Of a DNA stretch of 48,383 nt, positions 213 through 48,383 are shown piece by piece. A program made the position numbers and the translations under genes. How positions within the stretch are numbered: position 1 is the first letter of the stretch; every line of letters begins with the position of its first letter. Under the pieces are notes generated by a model that saw only the letters and a list, made by a program, of their open reading frames with translations, was not told where the DNA came from and made no database searches. The DNA comes from a virus (taxonomy: Duplodnaviria > Heunggongvirae > Uroviricota > Caudoviricetes), in IMG/VR virus record IMGVR_UViG_2671180501_000010. One strand, given 5' to 3'.

Positions 213-797
213 TTACTCCCTGACAGGGTTCGTAGGCCACTCAATATCAGGTGCAGTTGACGTATCAACACGGTTCAGCAATACCCGATACTTTTTCCAT
301 GCTTCCAGCAACGAGATTTCTTCCTCCGTTGCAATTTCCAGATCTGCAGCATCCTGAAGCGGCGCAATATGCTCACTGGCTACCTGCATCAGGTTGTTTT
401 TTGTTTCTTCCGCCTCCCGGATCCGGAACAGTTTTTCTGCTTCCGTATCCTTCACCCAGGCTGTGCCGTTCCACTTCTGAAACTCCCCTTCCGGCGATAA
501 CCAGGTAACATTTTCCGGTAACGGACCGAGTTCAGAAATAAATAACGCGTCGCCGGAAGCCACGTCATAAACCGTTTTACCCCGATGATCTTCAACGAGA
601 TGCCACGATGACTCATCACTGTTGAAAACAGCCACGAAGCCAGCCGGAATATCTGGCGGTGCAATATCGGTACTGTTTGCTGGCAGACCTGTATGAGGCG
701 GAATATATGCATCACCTTCACCAATAAATTCATTAGTTCCGGCCAGCAGATTATAAATTTTTATGGTCCGTGGTTGTTCACTCATTCTGAATGCCAT
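213..797 (-). CDS. tfaR: Tail fibre assembly protein (Tfa family)
   Basis: 194-aa ORF; translation matches recalled Rac TfaR / lambda Tfa sequence; start overlaps stop of upstream stf (ATGA). Confidence 0.85.
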
Positions 798-3625
798 TAT
801 GCAAGCCTCACAATATAGTTAAATGCGATGTTTTTGACGGTGTTTTCCGCGTTACCAGCAGCGTTAACGGTGATGGTGTGTCCATGTGAACCAATCGCAA
901 CGGAGTGCGTATGAGCACCAATACCGACAGTATGCGCGTGTGCACCTGCAGATGCTGCTGTGCCGGACAGTGAATGGCTATGATTACCATCTATACTGGT
1001 ATTCGCTAACCACCCCGTAGACATACCTACTGAGCCTTGTACACCCCAGGTATTTTGACCTGAGCTTGTATAACCATATTGATAAGTATCTTTAAAAACA
1101 CTGGGGTTAAATCGACGGCCATCTCTATGGCTGTGATTACCAGCTGCATTCGTGCTGCCACTTAAACTATGGGTATGCGCACCAGTGTTATTCGTGGATT
1201 TAGTGCCGTAATCAAACGACGATGTGGTTTTCGTCCCCAAATCCGTACTGGATGCGCTGGCGCTGTGGGTATGCGATTTAATGCCGTCCTGTTCCTGAGA
1301 CAATACGGCCCGACCACTGGCAGGTTTGCCCTTAATCGTCCAGCCACGCATATCAGGGATCACGCCTGACGGATAAGCCGCTGCAAGTTTCGGGTATGCA
1401 GATTTGTCAAAAGCCTGCCCCTGCATCAGGGCATAGCCAGACGGAACGGTATCTGATGGCCACGGGATTGGTGCGCCAGGCGGATAAAACTGCTCTGATG
1501 GCGTATAGAGTGAATAAACTGTACCGTCCGTTAACCCTTCCGGCTTATTAGCAGAATATGCTGGTGACGTATGAATCGTCACGCTGGCATTACTGGTATA
1601 ATCCCATTGAATATTTACACCAGTCGCATAATTTCCGATTGCAACGTAAATATCGTAAGTATCACCAGATGTATTAACCCAGGCAAAATTTGTAAACCCT
1701 GTCAATGTGCGCTGCCATAAAGCACCAGTAATCCCCTTCGGATTACCATTACCTGCACGTAAAACAAGTTCAGATATACCTGCCTGTTGAGGTGACCCCA
1801 CGTTAAATCCAGCGCCACCAATCAACGTAATTGAAACAACAGAACTCGCCTGTGGCATGGTTACCGTTGCTAATTTGAACCAACCAGCACCACCGCTGAA
1901 TGACATTGTTGTTGAGTTAAGCGTACCAATATCTTTCGGCGTCAGTGTTATATCCGCTGAAAGCGCCTTACCATTCACCTTACGGGCAGAAGGTACCCGA
2001 CCATTCGCATTGTCATTAGCTGCTTTCACTGCTTTCGGTGTCGCAGCAAGCGTTTCAGATGTGCTGTTGGTTGCACTACTGAGCTGGACAATTCCTTTTT
2101 GTGCTGTCGTAGCGTCCTGTGCGGTGTATTTCCCGTTAGCCAGGTCATACGCGGCCTTAACGGCTTTTGGCGTTGCCGCCTGTGACTCGGAAGTGCTGTT
2201 GGTCGCACTGCTGAGCTGTACTATCCCCTTTTTCGTCGTGCTCGCATCCTCAAGCGCCACGGCGGATGCAATATCCTCTGCCCGTTTTGCTGCTGTCTCG
2301 GCGCGCGTTGCCGCGGATTCCGCCGTACTTTTGCTCTGTGCTGCCGCTGCCGCACTGCCAGCAGCCTCTGTCGCCTTCGTGGATGCCGTCGTGGCGCTGC
2401 CCCTCGCTGCTGACGCCTGTCTGGTCGCCTCATCTTTTGAAGCAGACGCAGATGATGCCGATGACGCCGCCGAACTGGCGGACGATGCGGCAGCCGTTTT
2501 TGAGGATTCTGCGCTGGTTTCCGACGCTTTCGCGTTCGTTTCGGATGTCTTCGCTGCGGAAGCAGACCTCGCTGCTGCGCTGGCCTGTTCAGTGGCTTCG
2601 CCAGCCTTCGTTGTGGCTGTTGAAGCGGATGATGCGGCGCTTTCTGCCGATTTTCCGGCGGCGGTGGCACTGACTGCTGCCTCCTCTGCCTTAATGGACG
2701 CCTCACGGGCCGATGATGCAGCTGCTGTCTCAGAGTCTGCCGCAGCTGAGGCGCTCTGTTCCGCTGCCGTTTCAGAAGACTTAGCATTCGTCTCGGACGT
2801 TTTTGCCGCCTTCACGGAATTTCCTGCCGCCGTTGCCGAGGAGGCTGCACTGCTGGCGCTTGTGGAGGCGTTCGTTTCTGATGATTTTGCCGCCTCTTTG
2901 GAGGCCGCCGCATCTCTGGCTGAAGTGGCGGCTTCTGACGCTTTCGTTGTCGCAGTGGATGCAGAAGTGGCTGCTGATTTTTGTGACGCTGCAGCATTCG
3001 TTTCTGACGTTTTCGCCGCACCGGCACTGGTGGCCGCCGCGCTTTTTGAGGACTCTGCAGCGGCAGCACTTTTTGATGCTTCAGTGGCCTTTGTTGATGC
3101 CGTTCCTGCGCTGGAAGACGCCTCCTGAGCCGAAGTCGCGGCCTGTCCGGCTGACGTGCTGGCTGCACGCGCTGAGCCTGCAGCATCAGTCGCATGGGTT
3201 GCCGCCTCACGGGCAGATGTGCCGGCATCACTGGCTGACTTCTTCGCGGCTGCCGTGTTCTGTGCCACCGCGGACGCGTTACGCGCCACCTCTTCCACCA
3301 TCAGTTCAAAACGGCGCAGAGCCTCCGGACGGGCATCATCCTCCGTCATGGCACCGAGAAAATCATTCAGCGTACCGGGTCGGGAATCTTCATACACAGT
3401 GATGGTCCCGGCATGTGACGGCGGGAATCCTTCCACCAACAGAATAACGCTGTACTGACCGTACTCAACGTCCATGCTGTAACGCCCGGCTTCATCCGGA
3501 TTTTCTGAGGCCAGCGTGTTCACCACCACCGTGGTGCTGTTACGTTTTGCTTTCAGCTGGATTGTGCAGTTCTGTACCGGTTTTCCTGTGCCGTCTTTCA
3601 GTACACCTGAAATCTTTACTGCCAT
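797..3625 (-). CDS. stfR: Side tail fibre protein (Stf); long Ala/Ser/Thr-rich repetitive shaft and His-rich C-terminal domain
   Basis: ORF 797-3631; likely ATG at 3625 ([12 protein letters not shown]...) matching lambda Stf N-terminus; central low-complexity repeats; C-terminal GAHTHS/GSHGHT motifs typical of lambda-type Stf. Confidence 0.85.
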
Positions 3626-3634
3626 ATTCACCCC

Positions 3635-3663
3635 ACAAAAAAGCCCGCCTGAACCGGCGGGCT
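3635..3663 (-). terminator. Rho-independent terminator between lom and stf
   Basis: GC-rich 8-bp stem (agcccgcc / ggcgggct, loop tgaacc) followed on the minus strand by a T-run (plus-strand A-run 3637-3641). Confidence 0.5.
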
Positions 3664-3689
3664 GTCATAACACTGTGTTACCTGGCTAA

Positions 3690-4249
3690 TCAGAACTTAT
3701 AACCGACACCCACGATGAAACCGTCAGTGCGCCAGTCGCCACTGCCGGAGCCTTCATAAGCAATATCAATGGCCACGGATTCGGTCGGGTTAAACTGCAC
3801 GCCAGCTCCCCACGCCAGAGACGTGTTGCTGTGGCGACCGTCATCACTTCCGGTCAGCACGTCGTGCGTTTTCCCCTTGTTGTCAGTTACGCGGAGATAA
3901 TCCCCGGAGAAAGTCGACACACGGCTGTAAGCCACACCCGCCATCGCATACGCGCTGAACCATTCATTCACGCGCACAGACGGCCCCGCCATTACGCTGA
4001 ACCAGCGGTTACGAACGGAATCTTCATGCCAGCGGGTATCGCTGTAACGGGTCAGCTGGCGATTCTTGTCTCCTGCATAGCTGAATGACGTCACCAGCCC
4101 CAGCGTATCCGTAAACTCATAACGGTATTTCACGTTAATCCCGTTCAGATCATCACTGCCGGGAACGTTGGTCCGGGCATGAAGATACCCCGCGCTCAGC
4201 GTGGACTGATGTTCAGACGCCCATGCAGGCGCACCGGATACGGCCAGGC
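3690..4249 (-). CDS. lomR: Lom-like outer-membrane beta-barrel protein; 5' end lies in the N-masked run
   Basis: Translation (…LAVSGAPAWASEHQSTLSAGYLHARTNVPGSDDLNGINVKYRYEF…GVGYKF) matches recalled lambda Lom; C-terminal aromatic residue; reading frame continues upstream into Ns starting at 4250. Confidence 0.8.
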
Positions 4250-4676
4250 NNNNNNNNNNNNNNNNNNNNNNNNNNNNNNNNNNNNNNNNNNNNNNNNNNN
4301 NNNNNNNNNNNNNNNNNNNNNNNNNNNNNNNNNNNNNNNNNNNNNNNNNNNNNNNNNNNNNNNNNNNNNNNNNNNNNNNNNNNNNNNNNNNNNNNNNNNN
4401 NNNNNNNNNNNNNNNNNNNNNNNNNNNNNNNNNNNNNNNNNNNNNNNNNNNNNNNNNNNNNNNNNNNNNNNNNNNNNNNNNNNNNNNNNNNNNNNNNNNN
4501 NNNNNNNNNNNNNNNNNNNNNNNNNNNNNNNNNNNNNNNNNNNNNNNNNNNNNNNNNNNNNNNNNNNNNNNNNNNNNNNNNNNNNNNNNNNNNNNNNNNN
4601 NNNNNNNNNNNNNNNNNNNNNNNNNNNNNNNNNNNNNNNNNNNNNNNNNNNNNNNNNNNNNNNNNNNNNNNNNNNN
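4250..4676. other. Run of 427 N (masked or unsequenced bases)
   Basis: Literal n characters; length fits the expected lambda-like J C-terminus, J-lom spacer and lom N-terminus, suggesting masking of real sequence rather than an arbitrary gap. Confidence 0.95.
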
Positions 4677-7600
4677 ATACCGTTAAAAATAATGGGCGGA
4701 ATAATAATCTGGCGGTCAAAGTTATGATCATCGCTGATGGTGACTGTAACCGTACCGTCTGGTGTTTCCGTGTTACCCCACGTACCGACTTTTTTCGGGA
4801 AGGCTTTTGATACAGCTTTAACGAAATCCCCTCTGACCTGGGTCGCCTCCAGCATGCCCTTAATCGTACAGTTCTGGTTAATCGTGACATTGTTGAGCGT
4901 TCCTGAGTTCGCATTCACACTACCACTGATATCCGCATTTTTAGCGGTCAGCTTTCCGTCTGATGTCAGGGAAAATACCGGAGGACTGCCACCGCTGGTA
5001 ATGGCGGGGGCTGTCAGGCGCTTCAGGAACACGTCGTTCATGAATATCTGGTTGCCCTGCGCCACAAACATCGGCGTTTCATTCCCGTTTGCCGGGTCAA
5101 TAAACGCGATACGATTGGCGGCAACCAGAAACTGGCTCAGCTTGCCTTCCTCCGTGTCCTCCATGCTGAGGCCAATACCCGCGACATAATGTTTGCCGTC
5201 TTTGGTCTGCTCAATTTTGACGCCCCACATCGCATTCCATTTATCGTTAGCGTCCTTCCACTCTTTCGAAAACTCATCCAGTCTGCTGGCGTTATCCTCC
5301 GTCAGATCAACTTTTTCCAGCAGCTCTTTACCGAGATGGGATTCGGTTATCTTGCCTTTGAAAAAATCCAGGTAACCTTCCGCATCATCGCTCGCCCGAC
5401 CGACGGCCTCCACGAATGCCGATTTGCCAACGGTGTTCACACTGCGGATATAAAAGTAATAATCATGGCCCGGTTTGATATTGATACTGGCGGCTATCCA
5501 GTACAGCCCCGCGCCAAGGTAGCGGGCTGTGGTTTCAACCTGCCTGATATCGGTAATCCGCGTTTCCGAGAACCAGAACTCAAACTGTACCGTCGGATCA
5601 TAAACCGCAAGATGCGGCGTGGCAGTTATCTGAAAATAGCCCGGCGTCAGCTCAATCCGCGACGGTGCTACCGGTGCGGCAATCCTGAACGATACCGACG
5701 CCGGATCGCCCTGCTGTCCCCAGGCATTTACCGCCCGGACTGTCAGCGTGTACCGTCCCAGCGCCAGTTGCGTGAAGCGGTATGTGGTTTCCGTCGTCCG
5801 GGCCGTGCTGACCAGCCGCTCACTGCCGTCATCCGCTGCCACGGTCAGGCGAAGCATAAAGCTCACCCCCTTCACCACCTTCGGCGTGTCCCAGCGCGCC
5901 AGCACCTGATATTCCCCGCTGTCTGCGGTGACTTCGGCAGTCAGGTGCTGCACCGCTGGCGGCGTGACACCATTCACCGTGCCGCTCTGGTCGCCGTCAA
6001 AGTGCGCCCCGTTATCCACGATGGCTTCTTTTTCCGGTACATGCTGCACGGCAGTGATGGCATACGTGCCGTCATCGTTCTCACGGATACTCACACAGCG
6101 GAACAGGCGCTGGCGCAACGTCGGCAGCTTCAGCCCCCACACGCTGTATTCAGCAACGCCGTCAGGAACACGGCTCACTTTCACCTTCACGCCGTCGGTG
6201 ACGGACTGAACCTCCACGCTGACCGGATTGCCACTTCCGTCAACCAGGCTTATCAGCATGGTACCGGAGGATGGCAGCGTGATTTCACGGTCGAGCGTCA
6301 GCGTCCGGGTCTGGCTGTTTACCGCCAGCACGCGCCCGCCGATGCTGATACCCGCATAGTCATCATCACAGATTTCAATGACATCGCCCGGCACATGGCG
6401 AAGCCCTTCTGCGCCCACGCTGAAGTCCACGGTCTGCGTTTCCAGCAGTTCTGTTTTAATCAGCCACAGCCCGGCGCGGTGTGCCTGCCCCCGGCTGGTA
6501 CAGCCAAAAGCATCCATCTTCGTGACGTTACGACCGTAACGGGCAATGGCCTGCGTATCCTCCACAAGCTCTGTCGCCGTCTCCCAGCCGTTATCCGGGT
6601 CAATCCAGTTCACCTCAACGGCATTATGGCGGTCTTTCAGGGCGCTGAAGCTGTAGCGGAACGGCGCGCCATCATCCGGCATCACCACATTACTGCGGTT
6701 ATAGGTCCACACCTTATCCGACGGTCGGTCCTGCACGAACGTCAGCGTCTGCCCGTTCCATACCGGCATACAGCGCATCGCCGAGCAGAAATCACTGAGC
6801 ACATCCCACGCCTTGCGCTGTGTGGTCAGGTACGCATTACAGGTGATGCGCGGCTCCGTGCCGCCAAAGCCGTCCGGCACTGACTGGTCGCAGTACTGGC
6901 CGATGACATACAGCGCCCATTTGTCCACATCCGCCGCACCAAGACGTTTCCCCATGCCGTAGCGCGGGTGGGTCAGCATATCCCACAGACACCAGGCCAT
7001 GTTGTTGCTGTATGCTGGTTTTAACGTTCCGTCCCAGATACCGCTGTATTGTCGCGTCTGCGGGTTATAGTTCGACGGCACCTGCAGAATGCGCCCGCGA
7101 AGATGATAATTACGACTCACCTGCTGGCTGCCGAACTGCTCCGAGTCCACCTGTACGCCGACCAGTGCAGTGTTCGGGTAGCACTGTTTCACATCGATGA
7201 TTTCGGTGTATGACGACCAGAGCGTTTTGTTCTGCAGCTGGTCTGTGGTGCTGTCCGGTGTCATCCTGCGCATCCGGATACTGAACGGGCGCGGAGGCAG
7301 GTTATCCACCACCACCGAGACCAGATACTGCGAGGTGGTTTTGCCCTTAATGGTGATGTCTTTTTCCGTCACCCAGCCACCGTTACGCTGTATCTGAACC
7401 AGCAGGCGGACTTCCGACGGATTCCTGTCTCCCTTTGAGGTGGTTTCNNNNNNNNNNNNNNNNNNNNNNNNNNNNNNNNNNNNNNNNNNNNNNNNNNNNN
7501 NNNNNNNNNNNNNNNNNNNNNNNNNNNNNNNNNNNNNNNNNNNNNNNNNNNNNNNNNNNNNNNNNNNNNNNNNNNNNNNNNNNNNNNNNNNNNNNNNNNN

Positions 7601-7817
7601 NNNNNNNNNNNNNNNNNNNNNNNNNNNNNNNNNNNNNNNNNNNNNNNNNNNNNNNNNNNNNNNNNNNNNNNNNNNNNNNNNNNNNNNNNNNNNNNCCATC
7701 CACCGGACCTTCAACCGGCCCTTCACTGATGGCATCGATCACACTCAGCAGCTGCGTGGACTTCAGGTTGTCCTTCGCTTCGCGCGGGGTATGCCCCTTA
7801 CTGCTGCCTTTACCCAT
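4677..7817 (-). CDS. J: Host specificity / central tail fibre protein J (tail tip); C-terminal ~95 codons and an internal segment are hidden in N runs
   Basis: Starts [22 protein letters not shown] at 7817; long stretches match recalled lambda gpJ; visible 3' end (…[13 protein letters not shown]) runs into Ns at 4676; internal Ns 7448-7695. Confidence 0.85.
7448..7695. other. Run of 248 N inside J
   Basis: Literal n characters; corresponds to about residues 41-122 of lambda-like J by length. Confidence 0.95.
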
Positions 7818-7877
7818 TCCTCACGCTCCATAAACGACAAAACCGCCCGCAGGCGGTTTCTCATAAAACATTTTGCA

Positions 7878-8525
7878 TCAGCGACCAATCACCACAACCT
7901 GACCACCATCCCCTTCGTCTGCCGTGCTGATCTCCTGAGAAACCACACGTGACCCCACGCGCATTTCCCCGTACAGAACAGGCAGAACATTACCCTGGGC
8001 AACCATGTTATCCAGTGACGAGAAATACGTGTTCTGTTTGCCGTTATCTGTACTGGCTGCCGTGGGCGTCCTGGCTTTCGGTGCCAGCATCTGCGCCACA
8101 CCACCCAGGATCATACTGGCCCCTGCTGCATACATACCCGATACAGCCGCGGCCCCCAGCCAGCCCACAGGGTTCCACCATGCCACCGCAATCAGCGCCG
8201 CACCCAGCACCGCCTGAAACACACCGCCACTTTTGGCACCCGCCAGACGCGGAACGATGTGGATCACGGCACCATTTGCCAGCGGTTCATTAAGACGGGC
8301 AGATAATTCATTTTCGCCTGCATCACGCCCGGCAATGCGCACCTGATACCAGCCGTCGCTCAGTTTCTGACGAAATGCCGGGAGCTGTGTGGCCAGTGCC
8401 CGGATGGCTTCGGCCCCCGTTTTCACACGAAGGTCGATGCGGCGGCCAAATCGCTGCAAATCCCCGTAAAGGCAGATGCGTGCCATGCCCGGTGACGCCA
8501 GAGGGAGTGTGTGCGTCGCTGCCAT
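7878..8525 (-). CDS. I: Tail tip assembly protein I
   Basis: 215-aa ORF starting MAATHTLPLASPGMARICLYGDLQRFGRR, matching recalled lambda gpI. Confidence 0.85.
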   Translation of the reverse strand: MAATHTLPLASPGMARICLYGDLQRFGRRIDLRVKTGAEAIRALATQLPAFRQKLSDGWYQVRIAGRDAGENELSARLNEPLANGAVIHIVPRLAGAKSGGVFQAVLGAALIAVAWWNPVGWLGAAAVSGMYAAGASMILGGVAQMLAPKARTPTAASTDNGKQNTYFSSLDNMVAQGNVLPVLYGEMRVGSRVVSQEISTADEGDGGQVVVIGR

Positions 8526-9166
8526 TTGTCGGTGTACCTCTCTCGTTTACTCAGTTGTTCAGGAATATGGTGCAGCAGCTCGCCGTCACCACAGTAAATG
8601 GCGGCATGATTCGGCACCGATGAACCAAAACAGCACAGCAGCACATCGCCCGGCTGCGCCGTTGACAACGGCACCTGATACAGCCCTGTAGCCTCCAGAT
8701 TATCCAGATAGAGATTCTGACCATTACGCCACCAGTCGTCCTCACGATGAAAATCTGGCATCTCAATTCCCGCCAGATGGTAAGCGTCCCGGAACAGCGT
8801 GTAACAGTCCGTCACCCCGTGCTCAAAGCGCCGCCCGGTGAGATGCGGCACACAGCGGAACTTGTGAATCGCCCCGCGGCAGACCAGCCACCACGACAAA
8901 TCACTCTGCACCTGCAGCCGCCGGTCGGCCTCACTCAGCCAGGGCAGACCACCGGGGTGGCTGTGGACCAGCGCCACAATCTCACCCTGCATCTCTGCCT
9001 GCAGCCAGTCCTCCGGAGCCATCCGGAAATACTCCTCCGGCTCACCGGAAATATTCACGCAGGGAAAATATCTTTCCCCCTCCGGTGTTCTCACCACGAA
9101 GCCGCACGACTCCGCTGGCGCACATCGCCGGGCGTGCGCCAGAATCGCTGATTCTGTCTGTGTCAT
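8423..9166 (-). CDS. K: Tail tip assembly protein K (MPN/JAB-like plus NlpC/P60-like)
   Basis: ORF starting MTQTESAILAHARRCAPAESCGFV; HSH motif (ALVHSHPGG) and Cys-containing C-terminal half; position between L and I. The ORF overlaps I by about 100 nt, so the true 3' end is uncertain. Confidence 0.75.
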   Translation of the reverse strand: MTQTESAILAHARRCAPAESCGFVVRTPEGERYFPCVNISGEPEEYFRMAPEDWLQAEMQGEIVALVHSHPGGLPWLSEADRRLQVQSDLSWWLVCRGAIHKFRCVPHLTGRRFEHGVTDCYTLFRDAYHLAGIEMPDFHREDDWWRNGQNLYLDNLEATGLYQVPLSTAQPGDVLLCCFGSSVPNHAAIYCGDGELLHHIPEQLSKRERYTDKWQRRTHSLWRHRAWHASAFTGICSDLAAASTFV

Positions 9167-9171
9167 GGGAT

Positions 9172-9870: not shown

Positions 9871-10166
9871 CAGATCACCACTTCGTCAAACTGACACGAA
9901 AAATCGGTATAGGTGATATGTTCTGTCGCTGACCACGTTCGACACACCACTCTGATTTTTCTGTTAATACCCGGCGGGCGCCAAAAAAAAGATTTATAGC
10001 CTTCATGCCGGGCTAAAAATTTTTCAAATGAATCACGTTCATTCGCCTCAACTTTGAAATCACAGGTGAAAACGCGCAGAGAATGATTAAGTCCATTTGG
10101 ACTTCGTTGCTCATAACCATCACCAAATCTTACAGTTTTTATCGATGGTTTATTTTCTGTTTTCAT
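9870..10166 (-). CDS. M: Minor tail protein M
   Basis: Lambda gpM-like (…VRFGDGYEQR…); ATG at 10166 (MKTENKPS) preferred over GTG at 10208 by alignment to lambda M (MKTFRW…); alternative start 10208 overlaps H stop. Confidence 0.75.
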   Translation of the reverse strand: MKTENKPSIKTVRFGDGYEQRSPNGLNHSLRVFTCDFKVEANERDSFEKFLARHEGYKSFFWRPPGINRKIRVVCRTWSATEHITYTDFSCQFDEVVI

Positions 10167-10200
10167 TCCATCCTCTGGTAACCAGTGAAATTCTTCCGTA

Positions 10201-37819: not shown

Positions 37820-37841
37820 AAAAATTTCCTCCCGGTAAAAA

Positions 37842-38588: not shown

Positions 38589-38594
38589 GGTCAG

Positions 38595-39452: not shown

Positions 39453-39464
39453 GGAAACTTTTGC

Positions 39465-39887
39465 TTAATGAACAATGACAGAATCGTCGGAAGACCCGCC
39501 GCCGCTGAAATGCGCTTTCCGGTAAACGGCTTGGACTGCATCATCATGCGCATCAATTGCCGTACTTAACGCTTCCTGCGCCGCCAGTAATGCACGGCGT
39601 TCCAGGGTATCGAAGATGCAGAGTCGGTGACGCAGCTCGCGCGGAAGGATTGCCAGAATTGCTGGGATCAGCTTCTGAATTTTTTCTCTTTGCGTTTTCG
39701 TTTCACCTTTCAACCAACGGTGATAGATATTCTGCTGATTATTCCAGTCCTTGCCTGGTACCAGGGGCAATTCGCCGCCCCCCTGGCGCAGATATTCTTC
39801 AGTAATGGCATTGGCTACCCATGCCTGCCCTTTTTCGGCTGCCAGGGCTAACAACACTGACTCGATGTGCTCATGCTTGATTTTCAT
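39465..39887 (-). CDS. ydaT: YdaT (Rac toxic protein; cII-position gene)
   Basis: 140-aa ORF immediately downstream of the cro-like ydaS; matches recalled YdaT length and sequence. Confidence 0.8.
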   Translation of the reverse strand: MKIKHEHIESVLLALAAEKGQAWVANAITEEYLRQGGGELPLVPGKDWNNQQNIYHRWLKGETKTQREKIQKLIPAILAILPRELRHRLCIFDTLERRALLAAQEALSTAIDAHDDAVQAVYRKAHFSGGGSSDDSVIVH

Positions 39888-40138
39888 GAATCAACTCCCA
39901 TCAGCTTTTTCGTAGTAGTTTTATTTCTGCCAATAGTTAAAATTACATCAGCAGAAAATAATCCGTTTGATGCATGAGCGATTTTTTCAGCGTAATTTGT
40001 TTCGCCGGTATATTCTGTGCGAGGCAATTTTCCGTTATCCATCCATTTGTAGATTGCTCTTTGGCTGACACCACAAACGTCGGCCACAACAGAAACGCGA
40101 ACAGTTTTGATTACATCTTCAAGTGTTTTCTGGTTCAT
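39884..40138 (-). CDS. ydaS: YdaS, Cro-like HTH protein
   Basis: HTH segment VSQRAIYKWMDNGKLP; ATG 40138 preceded by GAGGG; in-frame alternative upstream start at 40210; divergent from racR. Confidence 0.75.
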   Translation of the reverse strand: MNQKTLEDVIKTVRVSVVADVCGVSQRAIYKWMDNGKLPRTEYTGETNYAEKIAHASNGLFSADVILTIGRNKTTTKKLMGVDS

Positions 40139-40199
40139 ATCACCCTCACAATGTGAACTTTGAGTACATGCTATAACAGAACTGACAGTACATTCAAGA
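40139..40199. promoter_or_regulatory. racR-ydaS divergent promoter/operator region
   Basis: 61-bp intergenic region between divergent repressor-like and cro-like genes; AGTACAT repeated at 40163-40169 and 40187-40193. Confidence 0.45.
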
Positions 40200-40637
40200 G
40201 TGAATATCATTGAACTTATGGTTCATGAAGATAAAGCGCGTAAAGAGTTCGCCAGTAGGCTTGCGCTAGCCTGTGAAAACGCTGGTTATGAACAACATGG
40301 AAGGCAGGCAGAAATTGCCCGTCGAATGAAATTAACACCAAAAGCGGTTAGCAAATGGTTTAATGGCGAAACAATTCCTCGCCGAGAGAAATTAAGGGAA
40401 TTAGCAACACTCATTGGAACAACACCAACCTATCTTTTGGGAGAGGATACAGAAGAAAGTGGACAGGTACGTTTCTATCAGGAGTTAAATCCAAGACAAA
40501 AAATCATCATTGACCTTCTGGACGAGCTCCCTGACAGTGAGACAGATGAACTTTTAAAAACTCTTGAGGAGAAAAAACAGAAGTACAATGCAATTTACGA
40601 AGAGCTAGCACGAAAGAAAAAACAAAAAGCCTCTTAA
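40200..40637 (+). CDS. racR: Prophage repressor RacR (HTH, cI-position)
   Basis: ORF with Cro/C1-type HTH (QAEIARRMKLTPKAVSKWFNGETIP); GTG at 40200 or ATG at 40218 as start; divergent from ydaS. Confidence 0.8.
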   Translation: MNIIELMVHEDKARKEFASRLALACENAGYEQHGRQAEIARRMKLTPKAVSKWFNGETIPRREKLRELATLIGTTPTYLLGEDTEESGQVRFYQELNPRQKIIIDLLDELPDSETDELLKTLEEKKQKYNAIYEELARKKKQKAS

Positions 40638-40927
40638 ACCAGCATAAATCCGGTAGCGTCCCCCTCCGGGTTTGTGCTTCACTTTATCCCATCTCATTTT
40701 TTTACACACAAAATGTACTTATAGTACTTTACATCAATGAACACAAAGTACATTATATACCTACCAACCCACCCCGCCCCACAGAACGCAGGGCAATACT
40801 TCGAGTTACCAGGCAGTGGTCAGGGGTTAAGTAGCCAGCCCGAGGCGTATGAACATGACGGCAGGGTTCAGATTTTGCAGTGCAGCAGGTTTCAGTTCCG
40901 CCACCCGGCGTTAAGGGGAGAGATAAG

Positions 40928-41062
40928 ATGGTGCATTACGAAGTAGTTCAGTATTTGATGGATTGTTGCGGTATCACTTACAACCAGGCTGTGCAGGCTT
41001 TACGCAGCAACGACTGGGATCTCTGGCAGGCAGAAGTCGCTATACACAGCAACAAGATGTGA
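40928..41062 (+). CDS. ydaG: Small Rac protein YdaG-like (44 aa)
   Basis: MVHYEVVQYLMDCCGITYNQAVQALRSNDWDLWQAEVAIHSNKM; RBS GGGGAGAG upstream; name from recalled Rac gene order. Confidence 0.5.
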   Translation: MVHYEVVQYLMDCCGITYNQAVQALRSNDWDLWQAEVAIHSNKM

Positions 41063-41072
41063 GATTCGCAAA

Positions 41073-41228
41073 ATGCAAAAAATCGACCTCGGCAACAACG
41101 AATCCCTGGTGTGCGGCGTGTTCCCCAACCAGGATGGAACGTTCACTGCCATGACGTATACCAAAAGCAAAACATTTAAAACCGAAACTGGTGCGCGCCG
41201 ATGGTTGGAGAAGCACACAGTAAGCTAA
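41073..41228 (+). CDS. ydaF: Small Rac protein YdaF-like (51 aa)
   Basis: MQKIDLGNNESLVCGVFPNQDGTFTAMTYTKSKTFKTETGARRWLEKHTVS; converges on the sieB 3' end; below the ORF-track length cutoff. Confidence 0.5.
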   Translation: MQKIDLGNNESLVCGVFPNQDGTFTAMTYTKSKTFKTETGARRWLEKHTVS

Positions 41229-41713
41229 CGATTAAAACGTCTACTCCTGCTGTTCCAGAATAACTTCATAAAATGGGAGTATTTTTCGGTGACGAGATAA
41301 TAAGAACAGTTTGCGCTATCACTCTGATGTTGAATGATGCCCTTCCGTTCTAATTTTTTCATAACCGGGTTACGGCAAGGAGAAGTGATAATAAGATTTC
41401 CTGTTTTAAGGAAATCTTTAAATACAGCGATTTCTTTCTCAGATAAACGAAGCAATACTCGTTGCTCTGGTAGTAATGAATAATGCTTTTGAATATGTGC
41501 TCGCAATCTTGAGAAGGAAATGGCGACCACGAAAGAAAAGGCAAAAACGATAATCTGAAAGAGCCAAGGTATTTCAGTATAAGCATTGAATGCGACAGTA
41601 AACTCTTTCGGTATCAGCCAGAGAGTGAGACCAAAAATGATAATCGTATACATAAGTATTTCGAGTGGCTCGTTAGCAAAAAGTTTCAACAATGGAGTAA
41701 ATACATCCAACAT
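41225..41713 (-). CDS. sieB: Superinfection exclusion protein B
   Basis: 162 aa from ATG 41713 (MLDVFTPLLKLFANEPLEILMYTIIIFGLTLWLIPKEF…), matching recalled SieB; membrane protein; AT-rich. Confidence 0.85.
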   Translation of the reverse strand: MLDVFTPLLKLFANEPLEILMYTIIIFGLTLWLIPKEFTVAFNAYTEIPWLFQIIVFAFSFVVAISFSRLRAHIQKHYSLLPEQRVLLRLSEKEIAVFKDFLKTGNLIITSPCRNPVMKKLERKGIIQHQSDSANCSYYLVTEKYSHFMKLFWNSRSRRFNR

Positions 41714-41930
41714 ATCAATAACTCTCAACTGTAAGGGTATTGAAATGTTAACACAAGCTCTCGCTGTAGGGGTATAGCCGAGACCACCGAAGCCCGGAGG
41801 TGGTGAAATAAAACCGGGCACAACACGAAGGCGCATTTCCGATATCCATAAAGAGTCGGTCTTGTCTGTTAAATTTAAATGGTGGGAGTGCGCCTCCGGT
41901 TGTAAATAACGACATTGCTGTGTGTAGTCC

Positions 41931-41980
41931 TGGCGGCATCAGTTTTTTTCTTGAAGTTCGGCTGATGTCCGCCCTTTTTA
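41931..41980 (+). promoter_or_regulatory. Inverted repeat / terminator-like hairpin in the kilR leader
   Basis: Arms ggcggcatcag (41932-41942) and ctgatgtccgcc (41962-41973) with one bulge, 19-nt T-rich spacer, followed by CTTTTTA. Confidence 0.35.
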
Positions 41981-42154
41981 AAGTGAATTTTGTGATGCGG
42001 TGAATGCGGCTAAGCGCACGTGGCACAGTTAAAAGTCATGTTAGTCCTTATTGGTTTGGGTGGGAAAGCCGACTGTAATTGTTAACTGGTTGCAGTCACC
42101 TGGAGGCACCAGGCACCGCATCAACAAAGTTCATTTGTAAAAATGGAGATAATT

Positions 42155-42376
42155 ATGATTGCACATCACTTCGGAACTGATGAAATACCACGTCAGTGTG
42201 TGACTCCTGGCGATTATGTTCTTCATGAAGGCCGGACATATATTGCCTCGGCAAACAATATTAAAAAGCGAAAACTATATATTCGTAACCTGACCACAAA
42301 AACATGCATTACTGACCGCATGATTAAAGTCTTCCTCGGTCGTGATGGTTTACCTGTAAAGGCGGAGTCATGGTGA
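42155..42376 (+). CDS. kilR: Killing protein KilR (inhibitor of cell division)
   Basis: 73 aa from ATG 42155 ([29 protein letters not shown]…), matching recalled KilR. Confidence 0.85.
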
Positions 42377-42546
42377 TGACTAAGAAAATAAAATGTGCTT
42401 ACCACCTTTGCAAAAAAGACGTTGAAGAAAGCAAAGCTATTGAAAGAATGCTTCACTTCATGCACGGGATTTTATCAAAAGACGAACCGAGAAAATATTG
42501 CAGTGAAGCTTGTGCCGAAAAAGACCAGATGGCACATGAACTTTAA
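42376..42546 (+). CDS. ydaE: YdaE (56 aa, Cys-rich small protein)
   Basis: ATG overlaps kilR stop by 1 nt (TGATG); [56 protein letters not shown]; below ORF-track cutoff. Confidence 0.6.
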   Translation: MTKKIKCAYHLCKKDVEESKAIERMLHFMHGILSKDEPRKYCSEACAEKDQMAHEL

Positions 42547-42620
42547 TTAATTGACTATTCGAAACTGAATTTATGCCAGAAATGGCAGGTATTCGCTCAA
42601 CCTTAATTAAGGAGAAAAAC

Positions 42621-42896
42621 ATGATTACCAATTATGAAGCCACTGTTGTAACTACCGATGACATTGTTCACGAGGTGAATCTGGAAGGAAAGCGCATTGG
42701 CTACGTAATTAAAACAGAAAATAAAGAAACCCCATTCACTGTGGTTGATATCGATGGTCCATCAGGCAACGTAAAAACACTTGATGAAGGTGTCAAAAAA
42801 ATGTGCCTGGTGCATATCGGAAAGAATCTGCCCGCAGAAAAAAAAGCCGAATTTCTGGCAACTCTAATTGCAATGAAATTAAAAGGTGAAATCTGA
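42621..42896 (+). CDS. racC: RacC
   Basis: 91 aa from ATG 42621 (MITNYEATVVTTDDIVHEVNLEGKRIGYVIKTENKETPF…) after GGAG RBS; matches recalled RacC. Confidence 0.8.
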   Translation: MITNYEATVVTTDDIVHEVNLEGKRIGYVIKTENKETPFTVVDIDGPSGNVKTLDEGVKKMCLVHIGKNLPAEKKAEFLATLIAMKLKGEI

Positions 42897-42997
42897 AAGA
42901 AATAGCCTGCGTATGGCGCAGGCTATGAACAGTGTGTATCCGGCAAGATCATTCACTGAACAAAACGAATTTTAATCTGAGTTGAGGTTAAAAAACA

Positions 42998-45598
42998 ATG
43001 AGCACAAAACCACTCTTCCTGTTACGGAAAGCGAAAAAATCATCCGGTGAACCTGACGTCGTCCTGTGGGCAAGCAACGATTTTGAATCGACCTGTGCCA
43101 CTCTGGACTACCTGATCGTTAAGTCAGGTAAAAAACTGAGCAGCTATTTTAAAGCTGTTGCCACGAATTTTCCTGTCGTTAATGACCTGCCCGCTGAAGG
43201 TGAGATCGATTTTACCTGGAGTGAACGCTATCAACTCAGCAAAGACTCCATGACATGGGAACTAAAACCGGGAGCAGCACCAGACAACGCTCACTATCAA
43301 GGCAATACCAACGTCAACGGCGAAGACATGACTGAGATTGAGGAGAATATGCTACTCCCAATTTCTGGCCAGGAACTGCCCATTCGTTGGCTTGCTCAAC
43401 ACGGCAGCGAAAAACCGGTAACGCACGTTTCACGCGACGGACTCCAGGCATTACACATTGCTCGGGCTGAAGAACTACCGGCTGTTACTGCCCTGGCTGT
43501 TTCCCACAAAACCAGCCTGCTCGACCCGCTGGAAATTCGCGAACTCCACAAACTGGTTCGTGACACTGACAAAGTTTTCCCTAATCCTGGTAATTCAAAC
43601 CTGGGACTGATAACTGCTTTTTTCGAAGCATACCTGAACGCTGACTACACCGATCGAGGACTGCTGACAAAAGAGTGGATGAAGGGTAATCGTGTTTCAC
43701 ACATCACTCGCACGGCTTCCGGTGCTAATGCTGGCGGCGGAAACCTCACCGATCGCGGCGAAGGTTTCGTACACGATCTGACGTCACTGGCGCGGGACGT
43801 AGCCACTGGCGTACTGGCCCGTTCAATGGATCTGGACATCTATAACCTTCATCCGGCACACGCTAAACGCATTGAGGAAATTATCGCTGAAAATAAACCG
43901 CCCTTTTCTGTTTTCCGCGACAAATTCATCACCATGCCTGGCGGGCTGGATTATTCCCGCGCCATCGTGGTTGCGTCCGTAAAAGAAGCACCAATTGGGA
44001 TCGAGGTCATCCCCGCGCACGTCACTGAATATCTGAACAAAGTACTGACTGAAACCGATCATGCCAACCCTGATCCGGAAATCGTGGATATTGCCTGCGG
44101 TCGCTCCTCTGCCCCGATGCCGCAGCGAGTAACAGAAGAAGGAAAACAGGATGATGAAGAAAAACCGCAACCATCTGGAACAACGGCAGTTGAACAGGGA
44201 GAGGCTGAAACAATGGAACCGGACGCAACTGAACATCATCAGGACACGCAGCCGCTGGATGCTCAGTCACAGGTAAATTCTGTTGATGCGAAATATCAGG
44301 AACTGCGGGCAGAACTCCATGAAGCCCGGAAAAACATTCCATCAAAAAATCCTGTCGATGCCGATAAATTGCTTGCTGCATCACGTGGTGAATTTGTTGA
44401 CGGAATTAGCGACCCGAACGATCCGAAATGGGTAAAGGGGATCCAGACTCGCGATTGTGTGTACCAGAACCAGCCAGAAACGGAAAAAACCAGCCCGGAT
44501 ATGAATCAACCTGAGCCAGTAGTGCAACAGGAACCGGAAATAGCCTGCAATGCCTGCGGCCAGACTGGCGGGGATAACTGCCCTGACTGTGGTGCGGTGA
44601 TGGGCGACGCAACATACCAGGAAACATTCGATGAAGAGAGTCAGGTTGAAGCTAAGGAAAATGATCCGGAGGAAATGGAAGGCGCTGAACATCCGCACAA
44701 TGAGAATGCTGGCAGCGATCCGCATCGCGATTGCAGTGATGAAACTGGCGAAGTCGCAGATCCCGTAATCGTAGAAGACATAGAGCCAGGTATTTATTAC
44801 GGAATTTCGAATGAGAATTACCACGCGGGTCCCGGTGTCAGTAAGTCTCAGCTCGATGACATTGCTGATACTCCGGCACTGTATTTGTGGCGTAAAAATG
44901 CCCCCGTGGACACCACAAAGACAAAAACGCTCGATTTAGGAACCGCTTTCCACTGCCGGGTACTTGAGCCGGAAGAATTCAGTAACCGCTTTATCGTAGC
45001 ACCTGAATTTAACCGCCGGACAAACTCCGGAAAAGAAGAAGAGAAAGCGTTTCTGAGGGAATGCGCAAGCACAGGAAAAACGGTTATCACTGCCGAAGAA
45101 GGCCGGAAAATTGAACTCATGTATCAGAGCGTTATGGCTTTGCCGCTGGGGCAATGGCTTGTTGAAAGCGCCGGACACGCTGAATCATCAATTTACTGGG
45201 AAGATCCTGAAACAGCAATTTTGTGTCGGTGCCGTCCGGACAAAATTATCCCTGAATTTCACTGGATCATGGACGTGAAAACTACGGCGGATATTCAACG
45301 ATTCAAAACCGCTTATTACGACTACCGCTATCACGTTCAGGATGCATTCTACAGTGACGGTTATGAAGCACAGTTTGGAGTGCAGCCAACTTTCGTTTTT
45401 CTGGTTGCCAGCACAACTATTGAATGCGGACGTTATCCGGTTGAAATTTTCATGATGGGCGAAGAAGCAAAACTGGCAGGTCAGCTGGAATATCACCGCA
45501 ATCTGCGAACCCTGGCTGACTGCCTCAATACCGATGAATGGCCAGCTATTAAGACGTTATCACTGCCCCGCTGGGCTAAGGAATATGCAAATGACTAA
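42998..45598 (+). CDS. recE: Exodeoxyribonuclease VIII (RecE)
   Basis: 866-aa ORF, the recalled RecE length; acidic linker; C-terminal nuclease region; stop overlaps recT start. Confidence 0.9.
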
Positions 45599-46400
45599 GC
45601 AACCACCAATCGCAAAAGCCGATCTGCAAAAAACTCAGGGAAACCGTGCACCAGCAGCAATTAAAAATAACGACGTGATTAGTTTTATTAACCAGCCATC
45701 AATGAAAGAGCAACTGGCAGCAGCTCTTCCACGCCATATGACGGCTGAACGTATGATCCGTATCGCCACCACAGAAATTCGTAAAGTTCCGGCGTTAGGA
45801 AACTGTGACACTATGAGTTTTGTCAGTGCAATCGTACAGTGTTCACAGCTCGGACTTGAGCCCGGTAGCGCCCTCGGTCATGCATATTTACTGCCTTTTG
45901 GTAATAAAAACGAAAAGAGCGGTAAAAAAAACGTTCAGCTAATCATTGGCTATCGCGGCATGATTGATCTGGCTCGCCGTTCAGGTCAAATCGCCAGCCT
46001 GTCAGCCCGTGTTGTCCGTGAAGGTGACGAGTTTAATTTCGAATTTGGCCTTGATGAAAAGTTAATACACCGCCCAGGAGAAAACGAAGATGCCCCTGTT
46101 ACCCACGTCTATGCTGTCGCAAGACTGAAAGACGGAGGTACTCAGTTTGAAGTTATGACGCGCAAACAGATTGAGCTGGTGCGCAGCCAGAGTAAAGCTG
46201 GTAATAACGGGCCGTGGGTAACTCACTGGGAAGAAATGGCAAAGAAAACGGCTATTCGTCGCCTGTTCAAATATCTGCCCGTATCAATTGAGATCCAGCG
46301 TGCAGTATCAATGGATGAAAAGGAACCACTGACAATCGATCCTGCAGATTCCTCTGTATTAACCGGGGAATACAGTGTAATCGATAATTCAGAGGAATAA
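45591..46400 (+). CDS. recT: Recombinase RecT (single-strand annealing protein)
   Basis: ATG 45591 ([23 protein letters not shown]…) overlaps the recE stop; matches recalled RecT (269 aa). Confidence 0.9.
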
Positions 46401-46455
46401 TTCAGCCTGGCGGTGTAATGCACCGCCAACTTGAAATATTTTTATGAGAAAAATT

Positions 46456-46650
46456 ATGAGATATGACAATGTTAAACCATGTCCATTTTGTGGTTGTCCA
46501 TCAGTAACGGTGAAAGCCATTTCAGGATATTACCGAGCGAAGTGTAACGGATGCGAATCCCGAACCGGTTATGGTGGAAGTGAAAAAGAAGCACTCGAAC
46601 GATGAAATAAACGAACCACTGGAAATAATAATGGAGGTGTTCATGTATAA
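46456..46650 (+). pseudogene. ralR: Restriction alleviation protein RalR/Lar, interrupted by an in-frame TGA at codon 50
   Basis: Reads MRYDNVKPCPFCGCPSVTVKAISGYYRAKCNGCESRTGYGGSEKEALER-TGA-NKRTTGNNNGGVHV-TAA; the final TAA overlaps the ydaC ATG as in the intact arrangement; the recalled intact protein has W at the TGA position. Confidence 0.6.
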
Positions 46651-46831
46651 AATTACCGCCACTATTGAAAAGGAAGGTGGCACTCCTACTAACTGGACAA
46701 GATATTCAAAATCTAAACTAACGAAATCAGAATGCGAAAAAATGCTCTCAGGTAAAAAAGAAGCAGGCGTTTCCAGAGAGCAGAAAGTAAAACTGATAAA
46801 TTTTAATTGCGAGAAACTTCAGTCCTCGTGA
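46643..46831 (+). CDS. ydaC: YdaC-like small protein (62 aa)
   Basis: ATG 46643 after GGAGGTG; MYKITATIEKEGGTPTNWTRYSKSKLTKSECEKMLSGKKEAGVSREQKVKLINFNCEKLQSS. Confidence 0.6.
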   Translation: MYKITATIEKEGGTPTNWTRYSKSKLTKSECEKMLSGKKEAGVSREQKVKLINFNCEKLQSS

Positions 46832-46930
46832 ATTGCATTGTATTCAAATTAAAACTTCATAGCTGATTATTAATAATCAACATCGGGCGTCAATTTAAGT
46901 CTAACATTGGCGCCTGCCAGAGGTGATGCG

Positions 46931-47146
46931 ATGGCACAAGTAATCTTTAATGAAGAGTGGATGGTTGAATACGGCCTGATGCTTCGCACTGGTCTGGGGG
47001 CCAGACAAATTGAAGCATACCGCCAGAACTGTTGGGTGGAAGGCTTCCACTTCAAACGAGTATCTCCTTTAGGGAAGCCAGACAGTAAGCGAGGGATTAT
47101 CTGGTATAACTATCCAAAGATAAATCAGTTTATCAAAGACTCATGA
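46931..47146 (+). CDS. xisR: Excisionase (Xis-like)
   Basis: ATG 46931 ([43 protein letters not shown]…); small basic DNA-binding protein ending 1 nt before int. Confidence 0.75.
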
Positions 47147-47147
47147 T

Positions 47148-48383
47148 ATGTCTAAATTACCAACAGGTGTCGAGATTCGAGGTAAATACATTCGCATCTG
47201 GTTCATGTTTCGAGGAAAACGATGTCGGGAAACATTGAAAGGCTGGGAGGTTACTAACAGTAACATTAAAAAAGCCGGGAATTTAAGAGCGTTGATAGTT
47301 CATGAAATCAATTCCGGTGAGTTTGAGTATTTAAGACGTTTTCCCCAGTCCAGCACTGGGGCAAAAATGGTGACAACGAGGGTCATAAAAACGTTCGGGG
47401 AGCTTTGTGATATCTGGACAAAAATTAAAGAAACAGAGTTAACAACAAACACAATGAAGAAAACGAAATCACAATTAAAAACACTCAGGATAATAATTTG
47501 TGAGAGTACTCCGATATCGCATATTCGTTATAGCGATATCTTAAACTACCGGAATGAACTGCTGCATGGAGAAACGCTTTACCTGGATAATCCAAGATCC
47601 AACAAAAAAGGAAGAACCGTGCGCACAGTTGATAACTATATCGCCCTGCTCTGTTCGTTGTTACGTTTTGCGTATCAGTCGGGATTTATATCAACCAAAC
47701 CATTTGAAGGAGTAAAGAAATTACAGAGAAACAGAATAAAGCCTGACCCGTTATCTAAAACAGAATTCAATGCATTAATGGAAAGTGAAAAAGGACAGAG
47801 CCAGAACTTGTGGAAATTTGCCGTATACTCCGGGCTTCGTCACGGGGAACTGGCTGCTCTGGCGTGGGAGGATGTGGATTTCGAGAAGGGAGTTGTGAAT
47901 GTCAGAAGAAACCTGACGATACTGGATATGTTCGGTCCCCCAAAAACAAATGCGGGGATCCGGACGGTAACACTACTGCAGCCTGCTCTTGAAGCACTGA
48001 AGGAGCAATACAAACTGACCGGGCATCATCGCAAAAGCGAAATCACTTTTTATCATCGGGAGTACGGCAGAACCGAAAAGCAAAAACTGCATTTTGTTTT
48101 CATGCCCAGAGTGTGTAACGGAAAACAGAAACCTTATTACTCGGTAAGCAGTTTGGGTGCGAGATGGAATGCAGCAGTAAAACGTGCTGGTATTCGCCGC
48201 CGTAATCCGTACCATACGCGGCATACTTTTGCCTGCTGGCTGTTGACGGCAGGAGCGAACCCGGCGTTTATAGCCAGCCAGATGGGGCATGAAACTGCGC
48301 AGATGGTGTATGAAATTTACGGTATGTGGATTGATGACATGAACGACGAACAGGTAGCCATGTTGAATGCGCGGTTATCGTAG
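47148..48383 (+). CDS. intR: Tyrosine-type site-specific integrase
   Basis: 411-aa ORF; C-terminal catalytic signature (…NPYHTRHTFACWLLTAGANPAFIASQMGHETAQMVYEIYGMW…) with R/H/R/Y residues; matches recalled Rac IntR; the stop is the last codon of the window. Confidence 0.9.
   Translation: MSKLPTGVEIRGKYIRIWFMFRGKRCRETLKGWEVTNSNIKKAGNLRALIVHEINSGEFEYLRRFPQSSTGAKMVTTRVIKTFGELCDIWTKIKETELTTNTMKKTKSQLKTLRIIICESTPISHIRYSDILNYRNELLHGETLYLDNPRSNKKGRTVRTVDNYIALLCSLLRFAYQSGFISTKPFEGVKKLQRNRIKPDPLSKTEFNALMESEKGQSQNLWKFAVYSGLRHGELAALAWEDVDFEKGVVNVRRNLTILDMFGPPKTNAGIRTVTLLQPALEALKEQYKLTGHHRKSEITFYHREYGRTEKQKLHFVFMPRVCNGKQKPYYSVSSLGARWNAAVKRAGIRRRNPYHTRHTFACWLLTAGANPAFIASQMGHETAQMVYEIYGMWIDDMNDEQVAMLNARLS

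Follow-up and report, generated by a model that had tools for sequence, protein, structure and literature searches.

The DNA analysed here is a window of 48,383 nt, deposited as the IMG/VR virus record IMGVR_UViG_2671180501_000010, and it carries a prophage resembling Rac of Escherichia coli K-12. The question raised by this locus is whether the element is a complete phage or a decayed remnant. Our analysis suggests a complete temperate lambdoid siphovirus from the Rac lineage, inserted in the 5′ end of ttcA and with its body in the window, which is most likely active now or was so very recently; we assign this reading a probability of about 0.8. Both the intactness of its genes and the way in which nearly identical copies are distributed among E. 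coli chromosomes bear on this question, and we consider them in turn.

The window is identical, runs of N included, to part of the E. coli draft contig CWWI01000003.1 (GCA_001261455.1). A 26-bp core, AAGAAAGAACAATACAACCTGAACAA, marks both annotated boundaries of K-12 Rac. This att core was not found in the window, with up to 3 mismatches allowed, and the source contig has a copy between sitA and uspF, 3.8 kb left of window position 1. On the int side, the core is located 76 nt past the intR stop codon, inside ttcA, as read in strain NCTC10444 and in other carriers of an identical IntR. The core-to-core length is 52,275 bp once the sizes of two assembly gaps are corrected, and the copy in NCTC10444 is about equally long (∼52.5 kb). 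A preliminary description had delimited an apparently intact Rac-like prophage at positions 213-48383; its completeness is borne out, but both ends of the element lie beyond the window. Adjoining the uspF-proximal core, 153 nt of phage-side sequence match K-12 at 98.7% identity, and beyond them sitABCD replaces the K-12 genes. Since sitABCD lies inside the att-bounded unit, it is cargo, together with trkG and a low-GC slot at 33.5-36.6 kb. The deduced junctions are ATCAACAAATTACA + core + GTAAGGGCAAAAAT for attP and ATCAAGAAATTAGT + core + ATTACAAAAACGTC for attB, and they reproduce the two TtcA N-termini of Liu et al. (PMC4632033). In the same paper, K-12 Rac was excised by K-12 IntR and XisR.

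Membership in the Rac lineage was judged from several features. The IntR and XisR module is 98.8% and 100% identical, respectively, to the K-12 proteins, and recE-recT, racC, kilR, sieB, and ydaT/U/V are present in K-12 order at 97.7-100% protein identity. The 26-bp ttcA core occurs at each end, the int-side copy by way of NCTC10444 and the other carriers of identical IntR. K-12 Rac and the present element thus have the same att core in ttcA and the same IntR/XisR. The feature that is not shared is the RacR/YdaS immunity, to which we return below.

From position 7696 to its end, the window is 99.95% identical to the prophage in the complete genome of NCTC10444 (100.0% over the second half of the window), and each open reading frame (ORF) in this part has the length of the corresponding NCTC10444 RefSeq coding sequence, at 99-100% identity. 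Genes were assigned with PHROG profiles, whose matches cover the entire profiles, and with Pfam searches. The packaging and structural genes, all on the minus strand, begin with TerS (364 aa, 23072-24166) and TerL (433 aa, 21790-23091; Pfam Terminase_6N/6C), followed by a portal (DUF4055, 20381-21787), a Mu-F/SPP1 gp7-like head protein (19285-20397), a scaffold (18416-19180), and a major capsid protein of the P22 fold (17178-18317). The neck genes (15407-17135) encode a tail terminator, Neck1, the head closure protein Hc1, the adaptor Ad1, and a 58-aa protein; they adjoin the tail tube gene (14418-15380; Pfam Phage_tube_2), and the whole stretch from the tube to the 58-aa protein (14418-17135) matched PHROGs 290, 179, 169, 161, 493, and 1514. 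The tail chaperones G/GT (13603-14369; PHROG 313) were delineated by frame analysis: a slippery heptamer, AAAAAAG, lies at the end of the chaperone frame (13914-13920), and past it the -1 frame is open as far as 13603, a frameshift arrangement typical of lambda-like tails. Next come the tape measure (1077 aa, 10201-13434; PHROG match) and the lambda-like tail tip genes I, K, L, and M (7878-10208; PHROGs 32, 30, 18, and 14), which are 100% identical to NCTC10444. At the far end, a side tail fibre (StfR homologue, 942 aa, 797-3625; Pfam phage_tail_N, Phage_fiber_2, and Collar) has an open frame, with a central part that differs from those of both K-12 and NCTC10444, and the tail fibre assembly protein (TfaR homologue, 194 aa, 213-797; Pfam Caudo_TAP) is 97.9% identical to K-12 TfaR and 100% identical to its NCTC10444 counterpart. 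Terminase, portal, scaffold, capsid, connector, tube, chaperones with their frameshift, tape measure, and tip are therefore present at full length, as for a complete siphovirus, and the remaining parts of a complete temperate genome, namely, an immunity switch, replication genes, a late antiterminator, and a lysis cassette with Rz/Rz1, were found as well.

Two places in the tail region required closer inspection, as did ralR. The window contains one run of 427 N at 4250-4676, a draft-assembly gap that hides the start of lom, the intergenic spacer, and the last 92 codons of the tail tip gene J, and a second run of 248 N at 7448-7695 within J. These runs belong to the deposited scaffold, because the stored gene calls end exactly at their edges. 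A sister isolate (GCA_001247865.1, locus L004), which is clonal with the source by its 2 mismatches in ∼22 kb including host flank, has real sequence at both places and its own N run elsewhere. Comparison showed that the first gap occupies 429 positions here (427 N plus 2 bases) versus 389 nt of real sequence in the sister isolate and in NCTC10444, an excess of 40, and that the second occupies 248 N versus 244 nt in the clonal isolate and NCTC10444, an excess of 4. Reading frames consequently cannot be carried across either run. The apparent frame offset in J results from the 4 extra N, and a J frameshift across the second gap, considered as a candidate lesion, was rejected on the agreement of the clonal isolate and the two other relatives.

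In the window, J (4677-7817, minus strand) is visible at codons 1-41 and 123-1045 of 1137, and lom, for an Ail/Lom outer membrane protein (3690-4249, minus strand; found with tblastn), at residues 15-199, its first 14 codons falling in the first gap. The 923 visible J residues of the longer segment are 100% identical to residues 123-1045 of the sister's J, which is open over 1137 codons and has recorded Pfam domains, and the sister's Lom of 199 aa is likewise intact. Judged by the clonal isolate, J and lom are unread in this assembly, not broken. In contrast, ralR (46456-46605, plus strand) has a true premature stop, W50* (TGG to TGA), leaving 49 aa versus 64 in an alignment with K-12 and vB_EcoS-683R6; codon 50 of ralR is the sole true lesion that we found in the window. 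The preliminary description had reasoned from the condition that J, lom, and ralR were the only lesions and had named frameshifts or stops in essential genes, for example in the masked J segments, as what would speak against an intact phage. Of the three, ralR stands and the other two dissolve into assembly gaps, and the 1137-aa J of the clonal sister contains neither a frameshift nor a stop. ralR is accessory, with a role in restriction alleviation and as a type I toxin, and its 49-aa form is common among other genomes. Its antitoxin small RNA, RalA, is intact and full length (46649-46827, minus strand; Rfam RF02694, 225 bits) and lies within an overlapping rcbA-like gene (46643-46831, plus strand). 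Taken together, these data support a Rac-type element that appears structurally complete, every essential gene being without visible damage. In a separate case, RefSeq calls the J gene of a near-identical prophage in NCTC9082 (locus L002, 5460-8874) frameshifted; it has a single-base T difference from the window at window position 7339, which may be a sequencing error or a real inactivation.

We then compared copies of the prophage in strains with different chromosomes. Strains with 0.9-1.5% divergence in the chromosome around the insertion carry copies that match this prophage at 99.95-100% identity, and divergence gives way to near-identity at the att core. Relative to NCTC10444, 78 of the 5369 nt of host flank (ydbK-ompN-uspF) differ (1.45%), and the final difference sits one base short of the core, whereas the segment from the core through sitABCD has 2 differences in 3.8 kb (0.05%) and the prophage body from 7696 on has 21 mismatches in 40.7 kb (0.05%). 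Only the J-to-fibre region is more divergent (93-96% identity), as would be expected of host-range gene exchange. The int side behaves in the same manner: between NCTC10444, from a calf, and EC2, from a human urinary tract in Australia, there is 1 difference in 1411 nt up to the core and 58 in 6583 nt beyond it. In addition, an exact search of IMG/VR with an attP probe composed of the core flanked by 14 nt from each arm, int-side and sit-side, returned 6 matches. One is a metagenomic contig of 50,494 bp in which tfa-sitDCBA-core-int-xis-recT-recE are contiguous at 98.4-98.8% identity and which matches the window at 99.45% identity from Rz, by way of trkG and the ParB-like gene, as far as the tape measure. 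An excised circle or concatemer would have this gene order, and so would a tandem lysogen. From the boundaries of the identity tracts and the attP contigs, recent horizontal spread by site-specific integration is the best reading for this phage type, and the prophage is most likely still an active phage or was one until very recently. An earlier suggestion that the element could mobilise trkG gains indirect backing from the identity tracts that end at the att core and from the attP contig, which includes trkG.

Several observations weigh against an active phage, and they bear on the idea, which we regard as improbable, that the prophage looks complete and is nevertheless grounded by an oversized genome, a defect in a regulatory or cis-acting site, or missense changes. 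At ∼52.25 kb, the element exceeds both HK639 (49.6 kb) and the 50.5-kb metagenomic contig by 2-3 kb, so that packaging capacity might be a constraint. The repressor lacks an S24 self-cleavage domain and is not of the SOS-cleavable type, and there are no LexA boxes in the window; an SOS-controlled antirepressor could therefore not be proposed. KingRac, a related phage, is only weakly induced by mitomycin C (PMC6731689), and ralR has its nonsense codon. An attP junction can also arise from tandem lysogens, the int-side att copy was read in NCTC10444 and other carriers of identical IntR and not in the isolate's own contig, and J codons 42-122 and 1046-1137 as well as the start of lom are known from the clonal sister isolate only. 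However, copies of similar size (∼52.5 kb in NCTC10444) show 99.95-100% identity in host chromosomes that diverge by ∼1-1.5%, the change falling at the att core, all genes have the lengths of the widespread alleles, close relatives are found in the attP configuration in public data, and ralR is accessory. These findings favor the active phage over a grounded one.

The near-identity of the copies might instead have come about by homologous replacement of large chromosomal segments, through conjugation or transduction by other phages, with no site-specific integration. Such an event has a precedent in the mouse gut, where a 120.5-kb donor segment comprising KingRac and its flanks replaced a 93.7-kb recipient segment (PMC12251178). 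Exchange endpoints would not be expected at the att core, however, and divergence begins one base outside the 26-bp core on the sit side and within ∼270 nt of it on the int side; attP junction contigs exist as well. We thus consider this explanation quite unlikely. Still less credible, to the point of being negligible, is a mis-assembled chimera of several lambdoid prophages. The source is indeed a short-read scaffold with N runs, and several similar prophages occur in one E. coli genome (median, 3 matching places), but the same gene order runs uninterrupted through the complete genomes of NCTC10444, EC2, and enteroaggregative E. coli (EAEC) 042 and recurs in four sister assemblies. Site-specific integration of a phage that is, or recently was, active accounts for these patterns best.

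A whole-prophage alignment to K-12 Rac (NC_000913.3, 1411899-1434958), as the preliminary description had advised, yielded collinear blocks, most of them at 94-99.9% identity, and three deletions in K-12. The blocks correspond to K-12 int to ydaG (window 40762-48383, 98.7% DNA identity), ydaT to the start of ydaW (37370-39893, 98.3%), the Rz remnant with rzoR, trkG, and ynaK (25817-28247, 99.3%), ydaY and ynaA (12500-14259, 99.9%), and lomR, stfR, and tfaR (235-4087, patchy at 81-98.5%). A deletion of 9.1 kb (28248-37369) removed the rest of ydaW, the cargo slot, the nin-like genes, the Q-like gene, the holin, the endolysin, and part of Rz; one of 11.6 kb (14260-25816) removed most of the ParB-like gene, the terminase, the head, the neck, and the tube; and one of 8.4 kb (4088-12499) removed most of the tape measure, M-L-K-I-J, and the start of lom. 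As the preliminary description stated, K-12 Rac lacks most structural genes and has ydaW as a fragment: 14260-25816 and 4088-12499 are absent there and K-12 ydaW is chimeric. K-12 YdaW is a read-through chimera of the DUF1627 start and the Rz frame (window 37367-37819 and 28138-28248), and K-12 YnaA joins the first 312 codons of the tape measure to the lom frame (window 12499-13434 and 3995-4087). K-12 YnaK, of the ParB-like gene, and YdaY are truncated remnants. Several K-12 "genes" (ydaW, ynaA, ynaK, and ydaY) are thus junction artefacts or stumps.

The two elements differ in other respects. K-12 Rac has an IS5 insertion in lomR that is not present here, an intact ralR of 64 aa versus 49 aa here, and, in the place taken by sitABCD in the present element, pinR, ynaE, and ynaM, which are absent from the window. 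Its racR and ydaS also have a counterpart by position only, a repressor and cro-like pair that is not homologous to them. The comparison supports a view of K-12 Rac as a deleted remnant: besides its three deletions it shows an inserted IS5, swapped immunity, and a right end of another kind. The window would accordingly show what K-12 Rac looked like before its decay and which three deletions made it cryptic.

No tblastn match to RacR or YdaS was found in the window (E < 1e-3), and the segment 39894-40761 has no DNA match to K-12. The gene inventory of the preliminary description is therefore correct for the named genes, which are present at full length, except for racR and ydaS, which have no homologue. 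In their place is a prophage repressor of 139 aa (40218-40637, plus strand; HTH_3, DicA-like, no S24 peptidase domain), which is not a RacR homologue and whose likeness to DicA is weak, and a divergent cro-like helix-turn-helix protein of 84 aa (39884-40138, minus strand), which is not a YdaS homologue. On the sequence evidence, racR/ydaS are replaced by this non-homologous pair, and given the absence of RacR/YdaS homologues, the element is probably hetero-immune to K-12 Rac. A repeat search identified three copies of TGAAC-N5-GTNCA between the two divergent genes (40154-40227), with a promoter-like site at 40182-40210 within the repeat stretch; these repeats are putative operators.

The prophage type is already described and common, and the element analysed here is a further copy with nothing new in kind, since full-sized Rac-like prophages, a sit-carrying example, and an experimentally active relative have all been published. 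Prevalence was counted over 5426 complete E. coli genomes, requiring at least 80% of a stretch in one place. The first 24 kb of the window, which is the structural half, was present in 667 of them and the second half in 128, and the sit region occurred in 2336. The sit-carrying example is prophage 042p3 (ROD21) of EAEC 042, described in 2010 with sitABCD as cargo and a published size of 50.4 kb (PMC2808357). From xisR to sitDCBA-uspF its architecture is that of the present element, and the two share the repressor down to the protein accession. The position of trkG and the head and tail genes are the same, the ParB-like gene is likewise full length, and sitABCD again lies at the tail end. In contrast to the present element, its cargo slot holds QueH and hokD, tRNA-Thr and tRNA-Gly lie downstream of the Q-like gene where the window has TolA-domain genes, its recE/recT alleles and tail fibre genes are different, and its ralR is intact. 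In the window itself, no tRNA gene was detected.

KingRac, a complete temperate phage of the Rac-like kind, comes from a commensal E. coli of the mouse and integrates at ttcA. It produces particles, and in the mouse gut it lysogenises K-12, taking the place of K-12 Rac; it has also been linked to the transfer of neighbouring genes (PMC6731689, PMC12251178). Compared by gene table, not by sequence, it shares with the present element integration at ttcA and the sizes of int, xis, and the rcbA-like gene, but at 46.8 kb it has other genes after rcbA and no trkG. Full-sized Rac-like prophages with LT-II toxin genes have also been reported (Jobling 2016, as cited in PMC5917428), and Sp10/CP-933R of E. 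coli O157:H7 are Rac-like prophages (PMC4632033). As far as these accounts describe them, the LT-II prophages and Sp10/CP-933R lie at ttcA, retain far more than K-12 Rac, and carry other cargo (LT-II, pertussis-like toxin). By its capsid protein, the closest cultured phage is the lambdoid HK639 (NC_016158.1), in which the portal, head morphogenesis, scaffold, and capsid proteins and the next small protein are syntenic, equal in length, and 50-75% identical; its terminase, neck, tail, early genes, immunity, and integration functions are unrelated or only distantly related to those of the present element. The near-identical records in the phage collection searched are not isolated phages but predicted prophage regions to which host genes are attached.

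sitABCD and trkG travel inside the att-bounded unit. That a 52-kb phage is at present active and spreads the transporter genes sitABCD (Fe/Mn) and trkG (K+), as cargo of benefit to the host, among E. coli lineages by lysogenic conversion is, on the genomic comparisons, about an even bet. If so, the sit locus of the chromosome would for the most part be a trait carried by phage, and if packaging is headful, the phage may transduce genes adjoining ttcA. Packaging is probably of the headful (pac) type, which we infer from the Terminase_6N/6C domains of TerL and the Mu-F-like head protein. Sequence searches of the PDB with TerL and the capsid protein gave no match, and no head protease gene turned up in the PHROG and Pfam searches; the scaffold gene precedes the capsid gene.

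By homology, the DicA-like repressor would keep the prophage silent through the three operators. Once repression is lifted, the cro-like gene, ydaT, and ydaU/ydaV for replication would be expressed, along with kilR-recET leftward, and the Q-like antiterminator would then open one long late operon. This operon would supply the phage-21-type lysis cassette, trkG, the ParB-like and glycosyltransferase genes, the Terminase_6-type terminase, the scaffold-dependent head of P22 fold, the lambda-like G/GT tail, the M-L-K-I-J tip, Lom, and the side fibres. IntR and XisR would excise the genome and restore the ancestral start of ttcA. The order of gene expression in this cycle is predicted from the gene layout.

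The early and integration genes assigned to these steps are as follows. The early-right operon (36626-39887, minus strand) encodes a Ren-like DUF977 protein, the full-length DUF1627 homologue of YdaW (37058-37819), and, at 37842-39887, YdaV (DnaC-like loader), YdaU (O-like initiator), and YdaT (CII-like). On the other side of the immunity region, ydaG, ydaF, sieB (41225-41713, minus strand), and kilR, ydaE, and racC (42155-42896, plus strand) occupy 40928-42896 and are 97.7-100% identical to the K-12 proteins. These are followed on the plus strand by recE (866 aa) and recT (269 aa) at 42998-46400, 99.2% and 98.5% identical to K-12, by xis (XisR, 71 aa, 46931-47146), 100% identical, and by int (47148-48383), encoding IntR, a tyrosine integrase of 411 aa that is 98.8% identical to K-12 and whose identical protein is recorded with Pfam Arm-DNA-bind_2 and Phage_integrase. 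The proteins encoded near int recur unchanged in thousands of genomes.

Also on the minus strand, the Q-like antiterminator (DUF1133, 31247-31789) belongs to a group that includes a DUF1364 HNH-like gene and an early NinB/Orf-like (DUF1367) gene (31247-32675). The lysis cassette (27803-28976, minus strand) consists of a holin (71 aa), an endolysin (165 aa), and Rz (154 aa), matching PHROGs 20, 7, and 13, with Rz1 (27862-28047) embedded in Rz and 100% identical to K-12 RzoR. Between the Q-like gene and the holin are two paralogous cargo genes for proteins with TolA C-terminal domains (29228-29602 and 29774-30202, minus strand), the 142-aa member starting with a lipoprotein-like signal (…IIIGC); one might speculate that they serve as TolA decoys and so protect from colicins that depend on Tol or from filamentous phages. 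In relatives, tRNA genes occupy this place. Downstream of the Q-like gene, an Rfam STnc100 match of 86.6 bits was recorded at 30313-30499 (minus strand), near a promoter-like site at 30876-30847 and a terminator-like hairpin at 30819-30800.

The potassium transporter gene trkG (26208-27665, minus strand) is cargo in the late operon, with a GC content of ∼0.39. Next to it, genes for a 69-aa ORF, a 310-aa glycosyltransferase, and a 262-aa ParB-N-domain protein span 24170-26070 (minus strand). The 310-aa protein belongs to the TET-associated glycosyltransferase (TAGT) family PF20691 (E = 3.7e-34), and its gene lies just upstream of TerS with the ParB-like gene (24357-26070). This pair could be a DNA modification module; no TET/JBP-like gene was seen in the window. 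The ParB-like gene, the ynaK homologue, is a RefSeq pseudogene in NCTC10444 and was considered as a lesion, but this was rejected, as the 262-aa ORF spans the whole ParB-like PHROG profile; the ORF has 263 aa in EAEC 042 and vB_EcoS-683R6.

The second cargo region within the window is a low-GC (0.35-0.42) slot at 33489-36556, between the Ren-like and NinB-like genes, with a DUF1971 gene on the plus strand and genes for a 333-aa and a 320-363-aa protein on the minus strand. The latter two had no match in PADLOC or NCBIfam, no significant match in the PDB, and none above the Pfam cut-off; weak sub-threshold matches to GNAT and HEPN/RES-NTD1 were all that was seen. They could form an undescribed defence or toxin-antitoxin cassette. 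The slot is a variable hotspot, because relatives hold other genes there, such as those for an FtsH-like protein and an S8 peptidase in vB_EcoS-683R6.

Finally, two observations concern the tail fibre genes. An Rfam IS009 match of 220.9 bits falls at 256-454 (minus strand), inside the tail fibre assembly gene. The identical 942-aa fibre is also encoded in GCA_001261435.1 (locus L006, 10001-17054) in another genomic context. After the fibre genes come a reverse transcriptase, a gene with a SLATT domain, dinI, and a different integrase beside a Dus-family (PF01207) gene, and this context suggests exchange of fibre genes between unrelated prophages.

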